Positions 1,882 to 25,727 of a DNA stretch of 64,000 nucleotides are shown here, one piece after another. The stretch is from a bacterium (GTDB lineage: Bacteria > Patescibacteriota > Minisyncoccia > Phycocordibacterales > UBA5272). The translations under genes were made by a program, and so were the position numbers. Position 1 is the first letter of the stretch. Each line of letters opens with the position of its first letter. The notes under the pieces are model-generated. The model was not told where the DNA came from, made no database searches, and worked only from the letters and a program-made list of their open reading frames with translations. The DNA is taken from NCBI GenBank assembly GCA_043765155.1, contig JAYUJP010000022.1:5077-69076 (forward strand), written 5' to 3'.

Positions 1882-2136
1882 AGATCTAAATTACTCTCTA
1901 AAATTATTAACTAACCCTAATAGATAAGTAATTTATTTTTAATTATAAATTATATATTTAAATAATTTTTAGGAAATATTTTTACTATTATATCACAAAA
2001 ACCAAGCTTATACAAAGTAACATTTATAACTTTTTGACAACAACACGAGTATGGAAAAGATAAATATTGTGTTTTATTTTTGAGAGGAGTATACTTAAGT
2101 TATTAAAAATTACTTCATTAAAATAAATAGAAATAC

Positions 2137-2310
2137 ATGAATATCAAATCTTTTTTCGGTGTAAAAAGTCCAACTAATGATTCTAATAATTTAGAAAAAT
2201 TAAATACAGTTGAATTGTCCTCTAACCAAGAATTAAGAATGCGCGAGCCGCTCTCTAGTCAAGAGATAAAGCTAGCAGCCACAAACGTGTCAGGATTATT
2301 TTCTTACTAG
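2137..2310 (+). CDS. Possible small ORF (57 aa, MNIKSFFGVKSPTNDSNN...)
   Basis: ATG..TAG open frame in an otherwise empty 500-nt gap. No RBS or known motif; it is below the 60-aa cut-off of the ORF track. Confidence 0.2.
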   Translation: MNIKSFFGVKSPTNDSNNLEKLNTVELSSNQELRMREPLSSQEIKLAATNVSGLFSY

Positions 2311-2755: not shown

Positions 2756-3433
2756 ATGACACATAATAAAAATAAGTTAGAAAATATTTTCTCTTTTAAA
2801 AACATAGTAATAGGATTAGTTTTGATCTTAATTGCCTTTTTTGCATTTTCAAAATATTCACAAATACAAAAAGATTCACAGCCTGTAGCAATAAAAGTTA
2901 CAAATACTGATCATACTATAGGTAGAGCAGATGCAAAAGTTAGCGTGATAGAATTTGCCGACTTACAATGTCCAGCTTGTAAGGCATTTGATCCGATAGT
3001 TACGCAGGTCATAGCTGACTATATAGCCAAAAATGCTAGTGTAAAGTTTACCTTTAAACATTTTCCGTTAACTGCTATACATCAAAATACATTACTAGCA
3101 GCAGTAGGATCTGAGGCAGCTGCAAAGCAGGGTAAATTCTGGGAATATAAAAAAGTAGTATATGAGAAGCAGGAGGACTGGGCCTCATCACTTGATGCAA
3201 AAGATAAGATAAAGTCATACTTATCTGCTGTGGGTATAGACACTACAAAGTGGGAGAAAGATCTATCAGATGCATCTCTGGAGGATAAAGTTCTCAGCGA
3301 CTTAAAAGAGGCTACAAGTATTAGCTTGTCAGGTACGCCAAGCTTTATAATTAACGGTGTAAAAGTCGATGCTTCTAAGTTATCTAGTCCAGAAAAAATG
3401 AAAGCATATATTGATGCAGAGTTAGCAAAGTAG
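2756..3433 (+). CDS. DsbA-like thioredoxin-fold thiol:disulfide oxidoreductase, membrane-anchored
   Basis: N-terminal TM helix, then a CxxC active site (DLQCPACKAFDP) in a DsbA/thioredoxin-like context. Confidence 0.8.
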   Translation: MTHNKNKLENIFSFKNIVIGLVLILIAFFAFSKYSQIQKDSQPVAIKVTNTDHTIGRADAKVSVIEFADLQCPACKAFDPIVTQVIADYIAKNASVKFTFKHFPLTAIHQNTLLAAVGSEAAAKQGKFWEYKKVVYEKQEDWASSLDAKDKIKSYLSAVGIDTTKWEKDLSDASLEDKVLSDLKEATSISLSGTPSFIINGVKVDASKLSSPEKMKAYIDAELAK

Positions 3434-18462: not shown

Positions 18463-19521
18463 ATGAACAACAAAGAACTTTTAAATATTTTAATATTAAC
18501 TCTTGTAAAAGAGTCGGGCTCAGACATACACTTGGTCACAAAGTCTAGTCCTATACTGCGTATACACGGAGAACTCATAACTGTGTCTAGGCTTGATATT
18601 TTAAAGTCATCTGATACCATAGATCTGCTACGAGAGATGACAAATGACAGCCAGTATCAAGACTTTGTTAATAATAAGCAATTAGACTTTTCTTATACGC
18701 ATGCAGGTGAGTATAGGTTAAGAGGTAACGCTTTTATGCAAAGCGGTGAGGTTACTATAACTCTAAGATTGGTCACAAAAGTTAAAACTATTTCTGATCT
18801 AAGCTTACCAAAAGAATTATTAGAATTTTCAGCCAAAAAGCAAGGTTTCTTTTTGGTGGTTGGTCCAGTGGGACAGGGTAAATCTACAACTATAGCAGCC
18901 ATGATAGACAATATAAATCAAAAAGAAAAGAGAATGATAATGACTATTGAGGATCCTGTAGAATATATACACGAGAACAAGAATAGTATAATAATGCAGC
19001 GTGAGGTAGGATTTGATGTTAATGATTTTAACTCGGGACTAATAGGGGCATTACGTCAGGACGTGGACGTTATATTTATAGGTGAGATGAGGGACTCAGC
19101 AACCATGAGCGCAGCAGTAACTGCGGCTGAGACAGGTCATCTTGTATTTTCTACACTGCACACTAACTCCGCTTCACAGACTATAGACAGAATTATAGAC
19201 TCTTTTCCTTCTGGTCAACAGGACCAAATACGCACTCAGCTAGCCTCGTCATTACTAGGTATATTTTCTCAGAGATTACTTCCAAAAGTTGGTGGTGGTC
19301 AAGTCCCTGTGTACGAACTTCTTGTTAGTAATACAGCGGTTCAGAATCTTATACGTGAAAAGAGAATATTTGAAATAGACAGAATTATAGAGACTGGCGG
19401 TGATATGGGTATGATAAGTTTTGATAGATGTCTAGCTGATTTAGTTAGAAAAGGTGAAGTGCCCCTTGATGAGGCTATGAAGTATGCGAAATACTCAAAA
19501 GTATTTGAGCAGATGATATAA
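18463..19521 (+). CDS. pilT: Twitching motility / pilus retraction ATPase PilT
   Basis: GPVGQGKSTT, IFIGEMRD..TGHLVFSTLHTN; PilT-length (352 aa). Confidence 0.9.
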   Translation: MNNKELLNILILTLVKESGSDIHLVTKSSPILRIHGELITVSRLDILKSSDTIDLLREMTNDSQYQDFVNNKQLDFSYTHAGEYRLRGNAFMQSGEVTITLRLVTKVKTISDLSLPKELLEFSAKKQGFFLVVGPVGQGKSTTIAAMIDNINQKEKRMIMTIEDPVEYIHENKNSIIMQREVGFDVNDFNSGLIGALRQDVDVIFIGEMRDSATMSAAVTAAETGHLVFSTLHTNSASQTIDRIIDSFPSGQQDQIRTQLASSLLGIFSQRLLPKVGGGQVPVYELLVSNTAVQNLIREKRIFEIDRIIETGGDMGMISFDRCLADLVRKGEVPLDEAMKYAKYSKVFEQMI

Positions 19522-19555
19522 AAAAGATAACAGCAACTAAAAAGTTTTTACAATT

Positions 19556-20764
19556 ATGAAATTTAAATACAAAGTATTTGGCCAAGATACAAGAATAAAA
19601 GAAGCCTATATAGACGAAATAAGCCGTGACAATGCTATATCAAAACTTCAGAGTGAGGGTAATATTATAATAGAAGTTACCGAGGCCCCAATAGATCTAG
19701 AGGACTCTATTTTTAAAAAGTATCAAAATAGAATATCTAACAAGGACCTAGTTATGTCAGCCAAACAATTAGCAACCCTAATTGGTGGCGGAGTAAATGT
19801 GCTCAAGGCTTTTAGATTACTTGCCAGTGAGTCAACTTCACCAGGTCTCGCCAATAGGTTCAAAATAATAGCTGAGGACATACAGTCTGGTATGCCCGTA
19901 TATAAGTCGATGGGAAGGCACACAGACATATTTGATAACTTTTTTATATCAATGGTGCACTCGGGTGAGGAGAGTGGTAAGCTAAAAGATACACTTAACT
20001 ACCTAGCTGACTTTTTAGAGCGTAATTACGAGTTAACCCAAAAAACCAAAAAGGCCCTTACTTATCCGATGTTTGTACTGGTAACCTTTTTTGTAGTTAT
20101 GATAATAATGACAGTATTTGTACTACCAAAATTAGCCGAAATGATAAGTAGCCAAGGCCAAGAGCTTCCAACCTTTACAAAGATAATAATGAGTTTTTCT
20201 AACTTTGTTATAAGCTATTGGTGGATGATAATACCGAGTATTTTTGCAGCGGGATATTATTTGCGTTCTTATGCAAGGACTGCGGACGGCTCAGCTTATT
20301 TTGATACTTTAAAATTAAAGATACCAATAATATCAGGACTATATAAAAAGCTATATCTTTCTCGCTTTGCGGATAATATAAATACCATGATATCAAGCGG
20401 CGTACCTATAGTGCAGGCACTGCAGATAACAAGTGAAGTGGTTGATAATTATGTATACAAAAAAGTATTTGAGAGAGTAGCTGAAAAGGTGCGTGATGGA
20501 AAGGTGCTGTCATTATCCCTTGCTGACGAGCCCCTAATTCCAAGTATTATGGTCCAGATGACGCGTATAGGTGAGGAGACTGGCGAGCTAGGTTATATGT
20601 TATCAAATGTAGCTAAATTTTATAAAAGAGAACTTGAGCAGACAATAGATTCAACCATAGCCCTCATCGAGCCGCTTATGATAGTTGTACTTGGCGGCTC
20701 AGTCGGTGTGCTGATGGCATCTATACTACTGCCTATATATAATATTGCGACAAATATACAGTAA
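19556..20764 (+). CDS. pilC: Type IV pilus platform protein PilC (GspF family)
   Basis: Two GspF repeats with three TM segments, about 400 aa. Confidence 0.9.
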   Translation: MKFKYKVFGQDTRIKEAYIDEISRDNAISKLQSEGNIIIEVTEAPIDLEDSIFKKYQNRISNKDLVMSAKQLATLIGGGVNVLKAFRLLASESTSPGLANRFKIIAEDIQSGMPVYKSMGRHTDIFDNFFISMVHSGEESGKLKDTLNYLADFLERNYELTQKTKKALTYPMFVLVTFFVVMIIMTVFVLPKLAEMISSQGQELPTFTKIIMSFSNFVISYWWMIIPSIFAAGYYLRSYARTADGSAYFDTLKLKIPIISGLYKKLYLSRFADNINTMISSGVPIVQALQITSEVVDNYVYKKVFERVAEKVRDGKVLSLSLADEPLIPSIMVQMTRIGEETGELGYMLSNVAKFYKRELEQTIDSTIALIEPLMIVVLGGSVGVLMASILLPIYNIATNIQ

Positions 20765-20788
20765 ATAAATATATTATCAAATATAAGT

Positions 20789-21208
20789 ATGGAAAATTTA
20801 GATCTCAAAAAAACATATCAAAAAGATTTTGATAGCTGGATAAAAATAAAAAAAGATATAGAAGATAGACAAAGAGTTGAAGCTTACAAGTACTCTATAT
20901 TCTGGTCTTCTTTTGGAGAGAATATTGGCTCTGAGGTCTGCGGCAAGGGTACATCTTTTTTGCGCCCTGTAGTTATCTTAAAAAAATTTGGTGAAAGATG
21001 TGTACTTGTAGCCCCGTTAAGTTCAAAAATAGACACTGATAAAAATAATATAAATATAAAGTTAGACTTTGAAGAAGGAGAAAGATGTGTTTTAATTTCT
21101 CAAATAAGAGTTTTGGATACTAAAAGGCTTTTTGACTATATGGGTAAAGTTAAGAAAGATAGCAGAGAAGATCTTAAAAATTCTTTTAACAAAATAGTTA
21201 AAATGTAG
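20789..21208 (+). CDS. MazF/PemK/EndoA-family endoribonuclease-like protein with a 40-aa N-terminal extension
   Basis: GSEVCGKGTSFLRPVVILKKFGERCVLVAPLSS... and ERCVLISQIRVLDTKRLFDYMGKV align with B. subtilis EndoA (GSEQGGVRPVLVI...SPTAIVAAITAQ...SVILLEQIRTIDKQRL). Confidence 0.6.
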   Translation: MENLDLKKTYQKDFDSWIKIKKDIEDRQRVEAYKYSIFWSSFGENIGSEVCGKGTSFLRPVVILKKFGERCVLVAPLSSKIDTDKNNINIKLDFEEGERCVLISQIRVLDTKRLFDYMGKVKKDSREDLKNSFNKIVKM

Positions 21209-21243
21209 CTAGCTATAAAGGTTAGCCGGTATATAAAAATCCT

Positions 21244-21270
21244 CCCCCCCTATTTTTAGATAGGGGGGGG
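21244..21270 (+). repeat. C7 / G8 homopolymer hairpin
   Basis: CCCCCCC-TATTTTTAGATA-GGGGGGGG; the only long G/C homopolymers in the window. Confidence 0.6.
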
Positions 21271-21394
21271 AAGTGCGATGATCAAGTCATCAATATATTT
21301 ATTATAGCAAATCAAAAATAAAAGTCAAGTGTTATTATTTTATAAGCTCCCTGTGTATAACTCACTAGTTATAACTTTTTTATGATAACTATTT

Positions 21395-21403
21395 TGTTAT
21401 AAT
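21395..21403 (+). promoter_or_regulatory. Extended -10 promoter TGTTATAAT for the major pilin
   Basis: Motif lies 80 nt upstream of the pilin ATG. An 18-bp palindrome TATAACT-CAC-TAGTTATA sits at 21357-21376. Confidence 0.45.
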
Positions 21404-21483
21404 ATGAGTATAATTAAAAAATAAATTAAAATATGTTAATACACAATTTAAAAAATAAAATCTCTAATCTTTTAAGAAGAAGT

Positions 21484-22095
21484 ATGAAAGGTGGTATGCG
21501 CGGATTTACATTACTCGAGCTAGTTATTGTTATAGCAATTATCGGTATACTTGCAGTTATAGTTCTACCTTCAATGCTAAGTGCCCTTTCAAAAGCTCGT
21601 GACGCTAAAAAAATGAGTGAGCTTAGGGGTATTCAATCTTTTTTGACAGTATCAGGTATAGACACTTCTTTAAGGTATCCAAAAGATACAACAGAACTGA
21701 AGCTTTGGTACGGATATAGAAAGGAAAGAGGTCCCGTTGCTTTGACTCAAACAGCTCCAGAATACAGATATGCGGGTATCGGCTGTGACACCACAGCAGG
21801 TGCTGTTAGAGTAGGGTCTGGCACATCTGATGCTACCACTTGTCAGTCTTATCAGTTGTGGACCGAGTTAGAAATAGATGCTGCTGCACTTCGTTTAGAC
21901 GCTGACCTTATTGGCGCCGCTGCTGGCACAGCATGTAGCGGTACTGGTACAGGTCCATGTGTTAATACTGGCGATATAGATGGATCTATTGTCATACCTA
22001 CAGGAGGTAAAGAAGGTAATCTAGAAGCTTGTACAAATAGGGCAGCCACAACAGCAAACACAACAGCAGACTGTGTATTTGATCTAGTGCCATAA
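21484..22095 (+). CDS. Type IV major pilin (prepilin)
   Basis: MKGGMRG|FTLLELVIVIAIIGILAVIVLP is a class III signal with Glu+5. The C-terminus is Ala/Thr/Gly-rich with 4 Cys. The longer upstream-extended ORF was rejected. Confidence 0.8.
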   Translation: MKGGMRGFTLLELVIVIAIIGILAVIVLPSMLSALSKARDAKKMSELRGIQSFLTVSGIDTSLRYPKDTTELKLWYGYRKERGPVALTQTAPEYRYAGIGCDTTAGAVRVGSGTSDATTCQSYQLWTELEIDAAALRLDADLIGAAAGTACSGTGTGPCVNTGDIDGSIVIPTGGKEGNLEACTNRAATTANTTADCVFDLVP

Positions 22096-22133
22096 TTTTT
22101 AGGATATAAATTTGTAATATAAAAATTATACAC

Positions 22134-22931
22134 ATGCTTACTATTTTATCTTTTATATATGGTGCGTCGCTAGGTTCATTTGCTAACCTCATAGCTGATA
22201 GGCTGCGTGTACGCACTATATTTAAGGATCGTAGTATGTGTCTGCATTGTGGTAAAAAGTTAACTTGGCGTGAGTTATTTCCCGTGCTCTCTTATCTGGT
22301 TCAGAAGGGTAAATGTTCTGGTTGCAAGTCAGATATATCTCAGATGTATTTCTGGTCTGAGATAGTGTGCGGATTACTTATAGCATTTTTGCCATTAGTT
22401 ATAACTCAATACGTGGACGTGGTTGCCAGCCCTGCTAATTTATTTTATGGTGTATTTCTATTTTTTGTTATATCAGCAAGCTTAGCATTATGTATAGCCA
22501 TAGCAATATATGACCTGCGCCATATGGTTGTACCATTTGAGCCGGCTATGGTCTTATTATCTATAGGGTTATTAGCCTCTATAGTAAGGCAATACATGCT
22601 CGGGTTTAACTTATACGACTTTTTTGCGGGCGCACTCGTCGCTGCTCCATTTGCATTTATGTACATACTATCAAAAGGCAAATGGGTTGGTATGGGGGAT
22701 GTGCTTATGTATGCAGCGCTTGGATTTGTGCTAGGGTTACCAATAGGAGCGACTACCTTCTTCTATTCAGTGTGGCTCGGATCTTTTATATCACTATTTT
22801 TACTTATAATGCATAAGAGAGAGTATAATCTAAAGTCAGAGATACCATTTACGCCGTTTATAATAATAGGAGCTATACTCGCTTTTTATACACATGCTGA
22901 TATACTTGGACTTTATGATATCTTGTATTAA
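22134..22931 (+). CDS. pilD: Prepilin peptidase PilD (A24 family)
   Basis: Zn-binding CLHCGKKL...CSGCKS tetracysteine motif, about 7 TM helices and conserved Asp residues. Confidence 0.85.
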   Translation: MLTILSFIYGASLGSFANLIADRLRVRTIFKDRSMCLHCGKKLTWRELFPVLSYLVQKGKCSGCKSDISQMYFWSEIVCGLLIAFLPLVITQYVDVVASPANLFYGVFLFFVISASLALCIAIAIYDLRHMVVPFEPAMVLLSIGLLASIVRQYMLGFNLYDFFAGALVAAPFAFMYILSKGKWVGMGDVLMYAALGFVLGLPIGATTFFYSVWLGSFISLFLLIMHKREYNLKSEIPFTPFIIIGAILAFYTHADILGLYDILY

Positions 22932-23640
22932 AAATAATCTAAAAAAATATTTTAATTGTAAAAATCTTTGTAAAAATTATAAAGGATTCACTTTGGTAGA
23001 AGTCGTAGTAACAGTAGCTATATTTTCTATTATAGCGACCATAACATATACTTCTTATCCTAATGCCAACAACATATTATCTTATAATATAACAGTACAA
23101 GAAGTAGTGAGTAGGGTAAAAGATGCCCAGATATACGGCTCTAGCGCCGGAGTAGACAGTGTATCTGGTGAGGATTATAAGGGGGCTGGATTATTTTTTG
23201 AGACAGATATTGTTAACTCTAAATATATAACAGAATTTTTAGACTTATCTACTAAAATAAGTGACTTAGCTGTAAAAGATAGCAATAAATATTATGATGA
23301 CCTGTCTGCTGCTAATCCAGACAAGATAAGCTCACAAGATAGTATTAAAAATAATGTGATAATAAGTAAGCTGTGCGTGAAGTCTACAGGCGCAGGAATA
23401 ATAGATTGTAGCCCTACTCAATTGTCTGTCACATATATAAGACCAGACACTCAGGCTAATATTACAAACATGGTTGCTGAGCCAGATACGATAAATAATC
23501 CTAATCTAAGTGGTAAAAAAGCTTTTGATATAGGCTATATAGAATTAAAATCAAATGTTATAAGAAGCGGTGAAAACTTGAGATGTATACAAGTATATAA
23601 AAATGGACAAGTTAATGTCAAAAAAGAAGCTTGCCAGTAA
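22915..23640 (+). CDS. Minor pilin / pseudopilin
   Basis: ...KNYKG|FTLVEVVVTVAIFSIIATI prepilin N-terminus. Confidence 0.7.
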   Translation: MISCIKNNLKKYFNCKNLCKNYKGFTLVEVVVTVAIFSIIATITYTSYPNANNILSYNITVQEVVSRVKDAQIYGSSAGVDSVSGEDYKGAGLFFETDIVNSKYITEFLDLSTKISDLAVKDSNKYYDDLSAANPDKISSQDSIKNNVIISKLCVKSTGAGIIDCSPTQLSVTYIRPDTQANITNMVAEPDTINNPNLSGKKAFDIGYIELKSNVIRSGENLRCIQVYKNGQVNVKKEACQ

Positions 23641-23691
23641 GTTTACTTATTTTAAAATATAAAATATAAATTAATATAAAAGTATAAATAC

Positions 23692-24276
23692 ATGAGAAAA
23701 AAATTATTAAATCTAAATAAAAAATATAAAAACTCTATCAGTAATATTAATAGTATGCGAGGTTTTTCACTTATAGAGTTACTTGTATCTATAACCCTTT
23801 TTACTTTTGTTGCCCTTGTTGCTATTGCCTCATTAGTGTCTACTCAGCAGCTTAATAGTAGACAAAAAGCGATTAATAATCTCTACAGTAATATGTACTT
23901 TTCAACTGAGGAGATAGCGCGCGAGCTCAGGCAGGGGAGTGGATACTCTAATACTGCAGGAGCTATGCAGTTCACTCCTTATCAGCCGAACGCCTCATCT
24001 TTTTATAAAGTTAAATACTTTCTAAATGCTAGCGGGGCTATAGAAAAGTCTAATAATTCTGCTAACTCTTCAATATTTGTGTCAGAGGGTAATCTTACCA
24101 ATGATAATATTACAATAACAGATTTAAAATTTGAGATTATTGGCGGTGGTAATTTTACTAGTGATGATAGGCAGCAGCCGAGTGTCAAGATTTTTATAAA
24201 AGGAGAGACAAAAGAAAAGCCATTTGTTAAATTTCAGCTTGAGGACTTTATAACTCAGCGTGACACAGATCAGTAA
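23692..24276 (+). CDS. Minor pilin / pseudopilin
   Basis: SMRG|FSLIELLVSITLFTFVALV. An alternative start at 23755 would give the leader MRG. Confidence 0.7.
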   Translation: MRKKLLNLNKKYKNSISNINSMRGFSLIELLVSITLFTFVALVAIASLVSTQQLNSRQKAINNLYSNMYFSTEEIARELRQGSGYSNTAGAMQFTPYQPNASSFYKVKYFLNASGAIEKSNNSANSSIFVSEGNLTNDNITITDLKFEIIGGGNFTSDDRQQPSVKIFIKGETKEKPFVKFQLEDFITQRDTDQ

Positions 24277-24311
24277 AATAAACTAACAGGTCATAATACT
24301 AAATAAAAAAT

Positions 24312-25007
24312 ATGCAAATAAAATTTTTAAATATAAATAATATAAAATCTAAAACTTACATAAGAGGGGTAAGTCTACTTAATATGCGCGGCTTTACCCT
24401 GGTAGAGTCACTAATGGCTATACTTATACTCACTACTGCGATAATAGCCCCATTATCTCTTGCTATGCAGACACTCAGATATAGCAAGATAGCAACTGAG
24501 AAAATAGAAGCTACCTATATGGCTGAGGAGGCGATAGAAATGATTTATAATGTAAAGAAGAGCGCGGAGGTATACTGTTCAGATCCTGCCTCACCATCTG
24601 CTATATGCACTAACTATTTTACTGATTATTTTTTGGATCAGAATAATTTATCAGAAAATGTAATAGATACAAAATGTTTTGGTTTTGCTATTGGTGGAAT
24701 AAAAAGATTTTGTAACTTTGATATTAGTAATATTGTATACGCATCTGATAAGACAACCAAGCTTAAAAATATAGATTCTACATCTGTGTATTTACTTAAA
24801 AATGATAGTGGCCTCTCATCAGCAACAAATGCTAAGAATAACTTTAAAAGGAGTGTTAATATAACTCAGACAGACTTTAATTCTTTCGGCCAACTGTCTA
24901 ATTCAAATAGCATATTAGTTACTAGTATAGTCTGTACCAGAGAAGAGGGAGAATGTGATGAAAATAGTCAAAATAAAGTAATATTACAAAGCTTAATAGC
25001 TAGGTAA
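24312..25007 (+). CDS. Minor pilin / pseudopilin
   Basis: NMRG|FTLVESLMAILILTTAII. Its 5' region is duplicated in the next gene (MQIKFL...). Confidence 0.7.
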   Translation: MQIKFLNINNIKSKTYIRGVSLLNMRGFTLVESLMAILILTTAIIAPLSLAMQTLRYSKIATEKIEATYMAEEAIEMIYNVKKSAEVYCSDPASPSAICTNYFTDYFLDQNNLSENVIDTKCFGFAIGGIKRFCNFDISNIVYASDKTTKLKNIDSTSVYLLKNDSGLSSATNAKNNFKRSVNITQTDFNSFGQLSNSNSILVTSIVCTREEGECDENSQNKVILQSLIAR

Positions 25008-25025
25008 AATAAAAAATAAAAAAGT

Positions 25026-25727
25026 ATGCAAATAAAATTTCTAAAATTAAATATAAATTATGCAAGTAACTTTTCTTTAGAAAGAGAAAATAAAACAAGT
25101 GCTATGCGCGGCTTCACTCTCGGTGTTGCTATGATAATAATGGGTATACTGGTCACTATATCAATAGGTATGAGCACTTTACTCCTCAAGGATTTAAAAC
25201 TTGTGAGCGTAACAGAAAAAAGTAGCATAGCGTATAATATAGCCGACTCTATATTAGCCTGCGCCACTAGTTATGAGAATCATATTAGATATATTAACCC
25301 TTCAGGAGTAGATGACACAGGAATATTTCCAACCTCTACTCAGTATAATTATGGTTCAAATTATAAAGAAAATTATACAACTGTTAATACAGATAATCAA
25401 TTAAGTTTCGATAAAAGTAGTATAAAGTGTTTTGATCAGGAAATATTGGACGAAATAAACTCTGACCCTAAAAATATTACAAAAGTCATGGCTATTAATA
25501 ATATAGATGCTGACCGAGAAAATGATGGTCCAAGTAATTATGCTGGGGGGGTAAAGACTATTGTAAGGGTGCAGACTGATTATATGAAAAGTAATTTGCG
25601 TGACGCATGCGCCGAGGTAGAAATATACTCTATAGTTTCTCAGGATAAACTCTTGGTAGCAAAGGGTAAAGTCCCATGTACCGGACCCAAAATAATTGAA
25701 AAGGTTATAGTTAAAAGCGTGCAGTAA
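25026..25727 (+). CDS. Minor pilin-like protein (atypical, no Glu+5)
   Basis: AMRG|FTLGVAMIIMGILVTISIG. It is a paralog of the preceding gene with the same MQIKFL N-terminus. Confidence 0.6.
   Translation: MQIKFLKLNINYASNFSLERENKTSAMRGFTLGVAMIIMGILVTISIGMSTLLLKDLKLVSVTEKSSIAYNIADSILACATSYENHIRYINPSGVDDTGIFPTSTQYNYGSNYKENYTTVNTDNQLSFDKSSIKCFDQEILDEINSDPKNITKVMAINNIDADRENDGPSNYAGGVKTIVRVQTDYMKSNLRDACAEVEIYSIVSQDKLLVAKGKVPCTGPKIIEKVIVKSVQ

Follow-up and report, generated by a model that had tools for sequence, protein, structure and literature searches.

A predicted ribonuclease toxin that sits inside a type IV pilus (T4P) operon with no protein antitoxin raises two questions: what keeps it in check, and what ties it, if anything does, to the pilus. 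The gene lies at 20789..21208 on the plus strand of the window, that is, the whole 64,000-nucleotide stretch of patescibacterial DNA that was analyzed. It encodes a 139-aa protein, as quoted in a sequence-only reading of this DNA, which had described a solitary MazF/EndoA-like endoribonuclease gene with an acidic 40-aa N-terminal extension. In that reading, the extension might act as an antitoxin, fused or in cis; alternatively, the enzyme might have been domesticated to regulate pilin mRNA or might stabilize the T4P locus in the manner of an addiction module. The enzyme family and the gene position were borne out. The gene is not solitary, however, since a conserved small RNA (sRNA) gene lies convergently downstream of it, and the pair is probably a previously unrecognized RNA-antitoxin system.

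The toxin, its subfamily and its genomic setting

Family and fold both support the assignment of the window ORF to the MazF/PemK endoribonucleases. The Pfam model PF02452 (PemK_toxin) matches residues 36-136 with 49.5 bits (cutoff, 23.1) and is covered over profile positions 4-108/109. Residues R59-P60 (R59 at 20963-20965, plus strand) and S78 (21020-21022, plus strand) align to the catalytic Arg25 and Thr48 of the Staphylococcus aureus and Bacillus subtilis MazF. In the family, R59-P60 is invariant, and the Thr48 equivalent is a Thr in most members. The protein has the SH3-like beta-barrel of the MazF/Kid/CcdB fold, and its best structural matches are the MazF proteins of S. aureus, Mycobacterium tuberculosis, B. 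subtilis, and Escherichia coli. Both this fold and the catalytic Arg and Ser/Thr are fully conserved in the subfamily to which the protein belongs, and the window protein is presumably toxic. PADLOC gave no match for the gene, and no specific NCBIfam model applies to it.

The N-terminal segment turned out to be neither acidic nor a special addition at this locus. It comprises ~35 aa and, as counted from the sequence, has a near-neutral net charge (9 K/R versus 8 D/E). Residues ~11-35 are conserved throughout the subfamily, and the first ~10 residues alone are specific to the window clade. An exhaustive HMMER search retrieved 1467 cluster representatives at a threshold of E<=1e-3, 449 of which also passed E<=1e-10; in nearly all hits listed among the latter, the alignment starts at query residue ~7-14. 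By profile search, the subfamily extends to >5000 clusters at 90% identity. Its hallmarks are a KxFxxWxxxK N-terminal helix, placed by the structural model at residues 14-26 of the window protein (20828-20866, plus strand), and an invariant GxNxGxExxGK loop between beta1 and beta2. Residues W17, K21, G43, N45, G47, E49, G52, R59, P60, P76, and R113 are invariant in the subfamily, and K12, F14, and K53 are conserved at >=90%; the window protein has both hallmarks (K12, F14, W17, and K21; G43, N45, G47, E49, G52, and K53). A helix with invariant basic and aromatic residues that is shared by more than 5000 clusters speaks against a fused antitoxin acquired here.

Current annotation of the subfamily consists solely of the generic label "PemK/MazF family toxin." We took 80 further family loci from reference genomes, and their hosts are mostly Patescibacteria, with some Bacteroidota, Proteobacteria, Verrucomicrobiota, and Campylobacterota. 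Plasmids of cultivated Campylobacterota also carry the subfamily, with members on Campylobacter, Helicobacter, and Nitratiruptor plasmids. Two loci hold decayed toxin genes with in-frame stops, namely, L041 (835-1305), a pseudogene, and L094 (1501-1836), the sole relative found on a viral contig. A search for a link to phages yielded this single decayed copy and no match in a phage collection.

At the window locus, the gene order is pilC, toxin, pilin, and prepilin peptidase. The toxin gene starts 24 nt past the co-oriented pilC (19556..20764, plus strand; Pfam T2SSF, 215 bits), and the major pilin gene (21433..22095, plus strand; N_methyl motif) follows after a 224-nt spacer. Because a consensus scan found no terminator-like site in the 24-nt gap, the toxin is probably cotranscribed with the pilM-pilC unit, and there is no room after pilC for a promoter of its own. 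The earlier statement that no antitoxin ORF is present was also confirmed: none of >=20 aa exists in the spacer, and no antitoxin-like ORF lies upstream. This extends to the family, as no MazE/PemI-like ORF was found in ~80 loci, where the upstream neighbors are heterogeneous and the small ones encode BolA, MGMT, or PG-binding proteins or belong to no family. The objection that the sequence-only reading had raised against itself, an overlooked antitoxin, does hold in an unforeseen form: the likely antitoxin is an RNA specified downstream on the other strand.

The proposals of a pilin mRNA regulator and of a T4P addiction module find no support in a comparison with the relatives, in which the pilus location is not conserved. 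The gene of P0002 (73% identity) lies 9 nt past a class II aminoacyl-tRNA synthetase (aaRS) gene, and those of P0003, P0004, and P0006 (60-64% identity) lie 3-14 nt past a seryl-tRNA synthetase gene. Using the window pil proteins as tblastn queries, we found a pilB homolog near only 3 of ~80 other loci (L020, L029, and L034), on the opposite strand; none of these other loci is embedded between pilC and a pilin gene. The GC content of the toxin/sRNA module (~0.29-0.31, or 0.25-0.31 over 20800-21400 including the spacer) is lower than that of its pilus neighbors (pilC, 0.33-0.41; pilin, up to 0.48), which fits an insertion. Most plausibly, the module came to lie in the pilus operon by an incidental insertion, which ties toxin transcription to a housekeeping operon, like the aaRS insertions of the relatives. 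The module is mobile, patchily distributed, and plasmid-borne, as toxin-antitoxin systems are.

Some further features of these neighborhoods deserve mention. Past the prepilin peptidase gene of the window, four consecutive ORFs (22894-25727) are likely minor pilins, two of which bear N_methyl motifs in RefSeq-style gene calls for the identical contig; together with pilM, pilB, pilT, pilC, pilin, and pilD, they form a complete T4P locus that ends at ligA (25780). Among the relatives, tRNA genes or clusters adjoin L046, L075, and L088 (Rfam), and a tRNA-like sequence lies downstream in L019, which fits integration hot spots. In L048, a 188-nt direct repeat with 95.7% identity flanks the module of toxin (2489-2896) and leader RNA at ~300 nt on each side and could mark an insertion or a target-site duplication. 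In L038, from a Yanofskybacteria MAG, an unrelated SAM-I riboswitch (71.2 bits) at 1910-2007 (plus strand) precedes the toxin module by ~500 nt.

The small RNA gene and its counterparts across the family

The sRNA promoter of the window lies on the minus strand at 21301..21328, back to back with the upstream region of the pilin gene. It consists of a -35 element TTGACT (21328-21323), a 16-nt spacer, and an extended -10 element TG-n-TATAAT, with the -10 at 21306-21301. With 11 of 12 consensus positions, it is the best promoter-like site in 19400-22300, an AT-rich region where 19 such sites were found versus 11.9 expected. The predicted RNA of ~60 nt (21234..21294, minus strand) begins with 5'-AU and continues with hairpin H1 (UGAUGA-CUUGA-UCAUCG, 21292-21276), the linker CACUUC (21275-21270), hairpin H2 or terminator (C7UAU-CUAAAA-AUAG7, 21269-21244), and a U-tail (AGGAUUUUUA, 21243-21234), all on the minus strand. 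It folds as two hairpins at -25.7 kcal/mol (z -4.15), is present in a single copy in the window, where 0 chance matches are expected, and has no Rfam match. H2 is the only terminator-like hairpin of the region, and a terminator was called on the minus strand only. Read in the plus direction, H2 has no U-tract, and transcription of the pilus operon and toxin therefore probably continues across the entire sRNA gene.

This mini-gene is kept downstream of the toxin in L001, L002, and L092, and the 5' flanks of the loci are unrelated. The promoter hexamers (TTGACT/TTGCAA/TTGCAT, 16-17 nt, TATAAT) are retained in these loci, and the spacers have diverged. Within the window clade, H1 shows a compensatory change from GAUGA/UCAUC to GAUGG/CCAUC; at the top of H2, UAU/AUA gives way to ACA/UGU and then to ACC/GGU. 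Over the four sequences of the clade, 95.4% of cells are paired versus 43-65% in shifted registers, and 4 pairs are doubly changed. The locus L093 (P0006) stops short of the RNA position and stands outside this comparison. The window variant, known from these four sequences only, was missed by our covariance models R1 and R2, and its CACUUC linker differs from the commoner CCGAG and CGAC types. In a scan of metagenomes with a 16-mer pattern for window-type RNAs, at least 120 chance matches were obtained, with no genuine copy among the matches listed, as the 16-mer was too unspecific. The segment at 21328-21234 (minus strand) has every part that defines the module, namely, a promoter, H1, a short linker, and H2 adjoining the toxin.

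Across 84 loci, the final tally was ~65 with a downstream-convergent RNA (11 of these 65 assigned by eye), 13 with an upstream RNA in the sense orientation, and 6 with none or an unclear one. A strict promoter-to-terminator unit downstream of the toxin was found on the minus strand in 27 of 82 loci; the plus strand gave 4 of 82 and shuffles 0.35. Spacing within the units of this strict search was constant, at 47-57 nt between the -10 and the end of the stem and 2-13 nt between terminator and stop codon; over the family loci, the convergent RNA gene lies 2-36 nt from the toxin stop codon. The full architecture (promoter, H1, 2-8-nt linker, and H2) was present in 41/84 loci, compared with 3/84 for the strand control and 0.3 after shuffling. 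At many of the loci, the design of H2 is GAAAC...GUUUC, that of a bidirectional terminator common to both transcripts.

The covariance model R1, seeded with 14 examples of the CCGAG-linker type, matched the expected site and strand in ~35 loci. In the 24 confident matches, 95.7% of cells were paired versus 35-57% in shifted registers, 12 of 14 pairs showed compensatory changes, and none of 500 shuffles equaled this result. The CCGAG linker is single stranded and almost invariant, and the stems that flank it covary freely. Covariation in H2 is expected of any terminator, and the evidence for H1 is thinner (2/3 modeled pairs in the type A RNA and 1/6 pairs in the window clade). A MAFFT alignment of all RNA types lost the register of the arms because stem lengths vary, and it was replaced by subtype-specific seeds and Infernal realignment. 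One covariance model uniting all RNA types was not achieved, and R1 and R2 are narrow.

The upstream RNAs belong to a subclade that had seemed to be RNA-less. There, two hairpins lie between the RNA's own promoter and the toxin ATG, typically 10-20 nt before the start codon, in a single copy and without a terminator (13 loci); the L038 example reads ACCAU-CGCC-GUAA-GGCG-UCAAC-GACUCC-UGCAA-GGGAGUC-GUAAAC. A model trained solely on upstream copies matches the convergent RNA of L045 with 33 bits (E ~1e-5, under a rough calibration), and the downstream-type model matches the same element. The upstream-sense and downstream-convergent RNAs are very similar and appear homologous, judging from their architecture, their visual similarity, and this single cross-model match. 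Taken together, we hold with high confidence that the partnership of RNA and toxin is real and linked across the subfamily.

Some loci depart from the single-copy arrangement or carry more than one module. L023 has two tandem RNA copies past one toxin gene (2876-2934 and 2966-3026, minus strand; 76.6 and 54.6 bits with R1), which recall the repeat arrays of type III antitoxins. In L035, an upstream-type RNA (2242-2292, plus strand) lies ~220 nt from the ATG (~2510), separated from it by a hairpin-rich segment that may have been inserted or may act as a further regulatory element. Furthermore, two genomes have two family copies each with differing RNA variants (L014/L027 in MAG GFS_3417 and L043/L047 in MAG UBA6187), as expected if toxin-RNA pairs are insulated from cross talk.

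Plasmid pVir as an experimental anchor

One member of the MazF subfamily is pVir0047 (CJJ81176_pVir0047) on plasmid pVir of Campylobacter jejuni 81-176. Past this gene in our locus L215 (1480-1884), the minus strand holds a TTGATT-17-TATAAT promoter and a hairpin-rich RNA. Table S12 of Dugar et al. 2013 (PMC3656092) lists a 77-nt RNA, CJpv3, on the minus strand of pVir (31119->31043), arranged as "><>" between pVir0047 and pVir0048; it was detected by dRNA-seq and northern blotting, and the table gives no function for it. After a +4 offset between two pVir records was taken into account, the mapped 5' end of CJpv3 falls 7 nt past the predicted -10, and its 3' end falls 4 nt from the stop codon of the MazF-family gene. 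CJpv3 (fold z -3.93), the pVir homolog of the RNA described here, has the same convergent position, the same promoter spacing, and a terminal hairpin abutting the stop codon but differs from the window RNA by its three hairpins. Three hairpins are also found in the Helicobacter suis RNA, and the RNA of the Nitratiruptor plasmid has the classic two.

In PMC10470494 and PMC7826846, which cite Shen et al. 2016, a validated RNA antitoxin on pVir, cjrA (toxin cjpT), is described as antisense and type I. This pair is possibly identical to the pVir MazF module, or it might instead correspond to CJpv2 and a small hydrophobic ORF near 25.3 kb. The latter region (L218:900-1420; pVir ~25.2-25.7 kb) is an unannotated gap with CJpv2 and convergent minus-strand hydrophobic ORFs of 41 and 58 aa, which resemble a classical type I pair and are candidates for one.

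How the RNA may act

We propose a two-part mobile module in which a MazF-family endoribonuclease with the subfamily helix is paired with a dedicated two-hairpin sRNA of ~60 nt. The sRNA would be transcribed constitutively from its own strong promoter, convergent with the toxin and just past its stop codon, and would stand in for the absent protein antitoxin. The folded RNA (H1, conserved linker, and H2) may bind the MazF dimer and hold it inactive in a structure-dependent, type III-like manner, with the N-terminal helix and the beta1-beta2 loop as candidate surfaces for RNA recognition. In the window, the module would have been inserted 24 nt past pilC so that the toxin is transcribed with the pilus operon. 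A structure-dependent role is favored on three grounds, namely, the sense orientation of the RNA in one subclade, the conservation of the linker, and the covariation of H1. We put the probability that the RNA is an antitoxin acting through direct toxin binding at roughly 0.45. Held a shade more tentatively still is the general claim that, in this mainly CPR/Patescibacteria MazF subfamily of >5000 clusters, a single-copy two-hairpin RNA of ~50-60 nt replaces the protein antitoxin by direct binding, is recognized by helix and loop, and is encoded as a leader or as a convergent gene. Two more specific ideas were discarded. Base pairing between the 5' half of the sRNA and the translation initiation region (TIR) or coding sequence of the toxin, as in the par/Fst model, was rejected on the uniform ranks of cognate versus noncognate duplexes. 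The conserved UACAU/ACAAAU had been considered as a mimic of the MazF cleavage site (a "pseudo-substrate leader") and was dropped, since the spacing from the -10 to H1 and the start of CJpv3 place the start of transcription at the conserved A and leave a leader of only 1-5 nt.

Direct binding has to be weighed against an antisense role like that of type I systems, which seems unlikely but is to be taken seriously. Transcripts of the toxin or the operon would be bound by the convergent sRNA at their complementary 3' ends, or the strong promoter facing them would cause transcriptional interference, leading to degradation or to blocked expression. The position of the RNA gene so close to the stop codon suits this role, as do the bidirectional-terminator design of H2 in many loci and the description of cjrA as an antisense type I antitoxin (PMC10470494 and PMC7826846); a read-through toxin mRNA in the window would be 100% complementary to the sRNA. 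On the contrary, the sense-upstream RNA of 13 loci cannot be antisense to the toxin mRNA, and RNAduplex found no cognate-specific pairing of the sRNA with the TIR or coding sequence in 31 loci, where cognate duplex energies rank uniformly. A purely antisense RNA would, moreover, leave the H1 covariation and the near-invariant single-stranded linker unexplained. It is also conceivable, but improbable, that the RNA does not inhibit the protein and is instead its target, as an operator in cis or in trans, an autoregulatory decoy, or an RNase substrate, with the protein possibly being a dedicated RNA-binding or processing factor. The distance of 10-20 nt between the upstream RNA and the start codon fits translational autorepression, the linkage is tight and nearly universal, and a true toxin would seem risky inside essential or housekeeping operons of small CPR genomes. 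For the leader-RNA subclade, a single RNA copy on each mRNA would seem insufficient for titration of the protein, which favors a cis-regulatory reading there; under our own proposal, the RNA could double in that subclade as an operator for translational autorepression or self-processing. For a role as mere target, however, the full conservation of the catalytic Arg, the Ser/Thr, and the MazF fold is unexpected, as are the mobile, patchy, and plasmid-borne distribution typical of toxin-antitoxin systems and the decay of one copy (the L041 pseudogene).

Two remaining explanations carry far less weight. We regard as very improbable that the N-terminal extension provides an antitoxin in fused or cis-acting form, or that the RNase serves to regulate pilin mRNA or to keep the pilus locus stable: the gene is co-oriented between pilC and pilin, a protein antitoxin is absent, and pilB is near three other loci, but the extension is subfamily-wide and co-occurs with the RNA partner, the closest homologs are in aaRS contexts, and the GC of the module, which is lower than the 0.33-0.48 of the pilus neighbors, fits insertion. 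Hardly credible is the view that the downstream element is a mere terminator with a chance promoter-like sequence and no tie to the toxin. The excess of promoter-like sites in this AT-rich DNA and the terminator-type H2 would allow for it; however, the complete unit accompanies the toxin into unrelated neighborhoods, the full architecture far exceeds its strand and shuffle controls, H1 and the linker are conserved, and the pVir RNA was detected experimentally and begins exactly where the promoter predicts.

It is important to consider how such a module relates to known toxin-antitoxin systems. With MazEF and PemIK (Kid-Kis) of type II, the window toxin shares PF02452, the fold, and the catalytic Arg-Pro and Ser/Thr. 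In contrast to these systems, the subfamily lacks a MazE/PemI protein antitoxin (~80 loci), adds the N-terminal helix and the GxNxGxExxGK loop, and has an RNA partner; in the window, no adjacent protein antitoxin of the kind that defines type II (MazE/PemI/AbrB, RHH, etc.) was found. The toxins of type III systems have a MazF-like fold, are inhibited by direct RNA-protein contact, and process the RNA. ToxIN, CptIN, TenpIN, and AbiQ/antiQ likewise combine an endoribonuclease of MazF/Kid-like fold with a small structured RNA and no protein antitoxin, and the subfamily has type III-like traits in the upstream same-strand RNA of one subclade and the two tandem copies of one locus. Nonetheless, the window toxin lies outside the ToxN/AbiQ, CptN, and TenpN families, and its RNA is single copy, downstream, and convergent, unlike the upstream tandem repeat array with terminator of type III.

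Type I systems such as par/Fst RNAI-RNAII, txpA/RatA, and bsrG/SR4 have convergent antisense RNAs that overlap at the 3' end, and type I toxins are typically small hydrophobic peptides, with SymE and RalR as exceptions. The systems par/Fst and B. subtilis txpA/RatA and bsrG/SR4 resemble the module in having a convergent sRNA of ~60 nt with a strong promoter that ends at or shares a bidirectional terminator. They differ in that the toxin of the module is a 15-kDa protein with an RNase fold (in the window, soluble and 139 aa long) and not a small membrane peptide, TIR complementarity is missing, and the RNA is sense-oriented in one subclade. Among conserved RNA structures, the Rfam pemK RNA motif (RF02913) is named for pemK genes and classed as cis-regulatory; it reportedly comes from the candidate set of Weinberg et al. 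2017. The RF02913 model gave no match at E<=10 in short inputs from the window region, L033, and L050 and none at E<=0.1-1 in 25 further loci, and no Rfam family, RF02913 included, matches any form of the RNA. The RNA partner of this MazF subfamily appears to be previously undescribed.

These results emphasize that the toxin-family label is probably wrong about the partner for thousands of clusters, as current annotation is blind to an RNA antitoxin. The suggestion of a pilus-specific function for the window gene is removed. The two arrangements of one RNA amount to a natural experiment in regulator wiring, and the plasmid members in Campylobacter, Helicobacter, and Nitratiruptor, together with the detected CJpv3, bring the hypothesis within reach of experiments on cultivated bacteria. 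If cjpT is pVir0047 and cjrA is CJpv3, an RNA antitoxin has already been shown for one member, and the present result generalizes it. If the RNA inhibits the protein directly, the module would be a new family of RNA antitoxins acting on a canonical MazF, analogous to type III, and would connect type II with type III systems in evolution. Such a system, if true, would explain why the very small genomes of CPR bacteria hold many seemingly orphan MazF genes.
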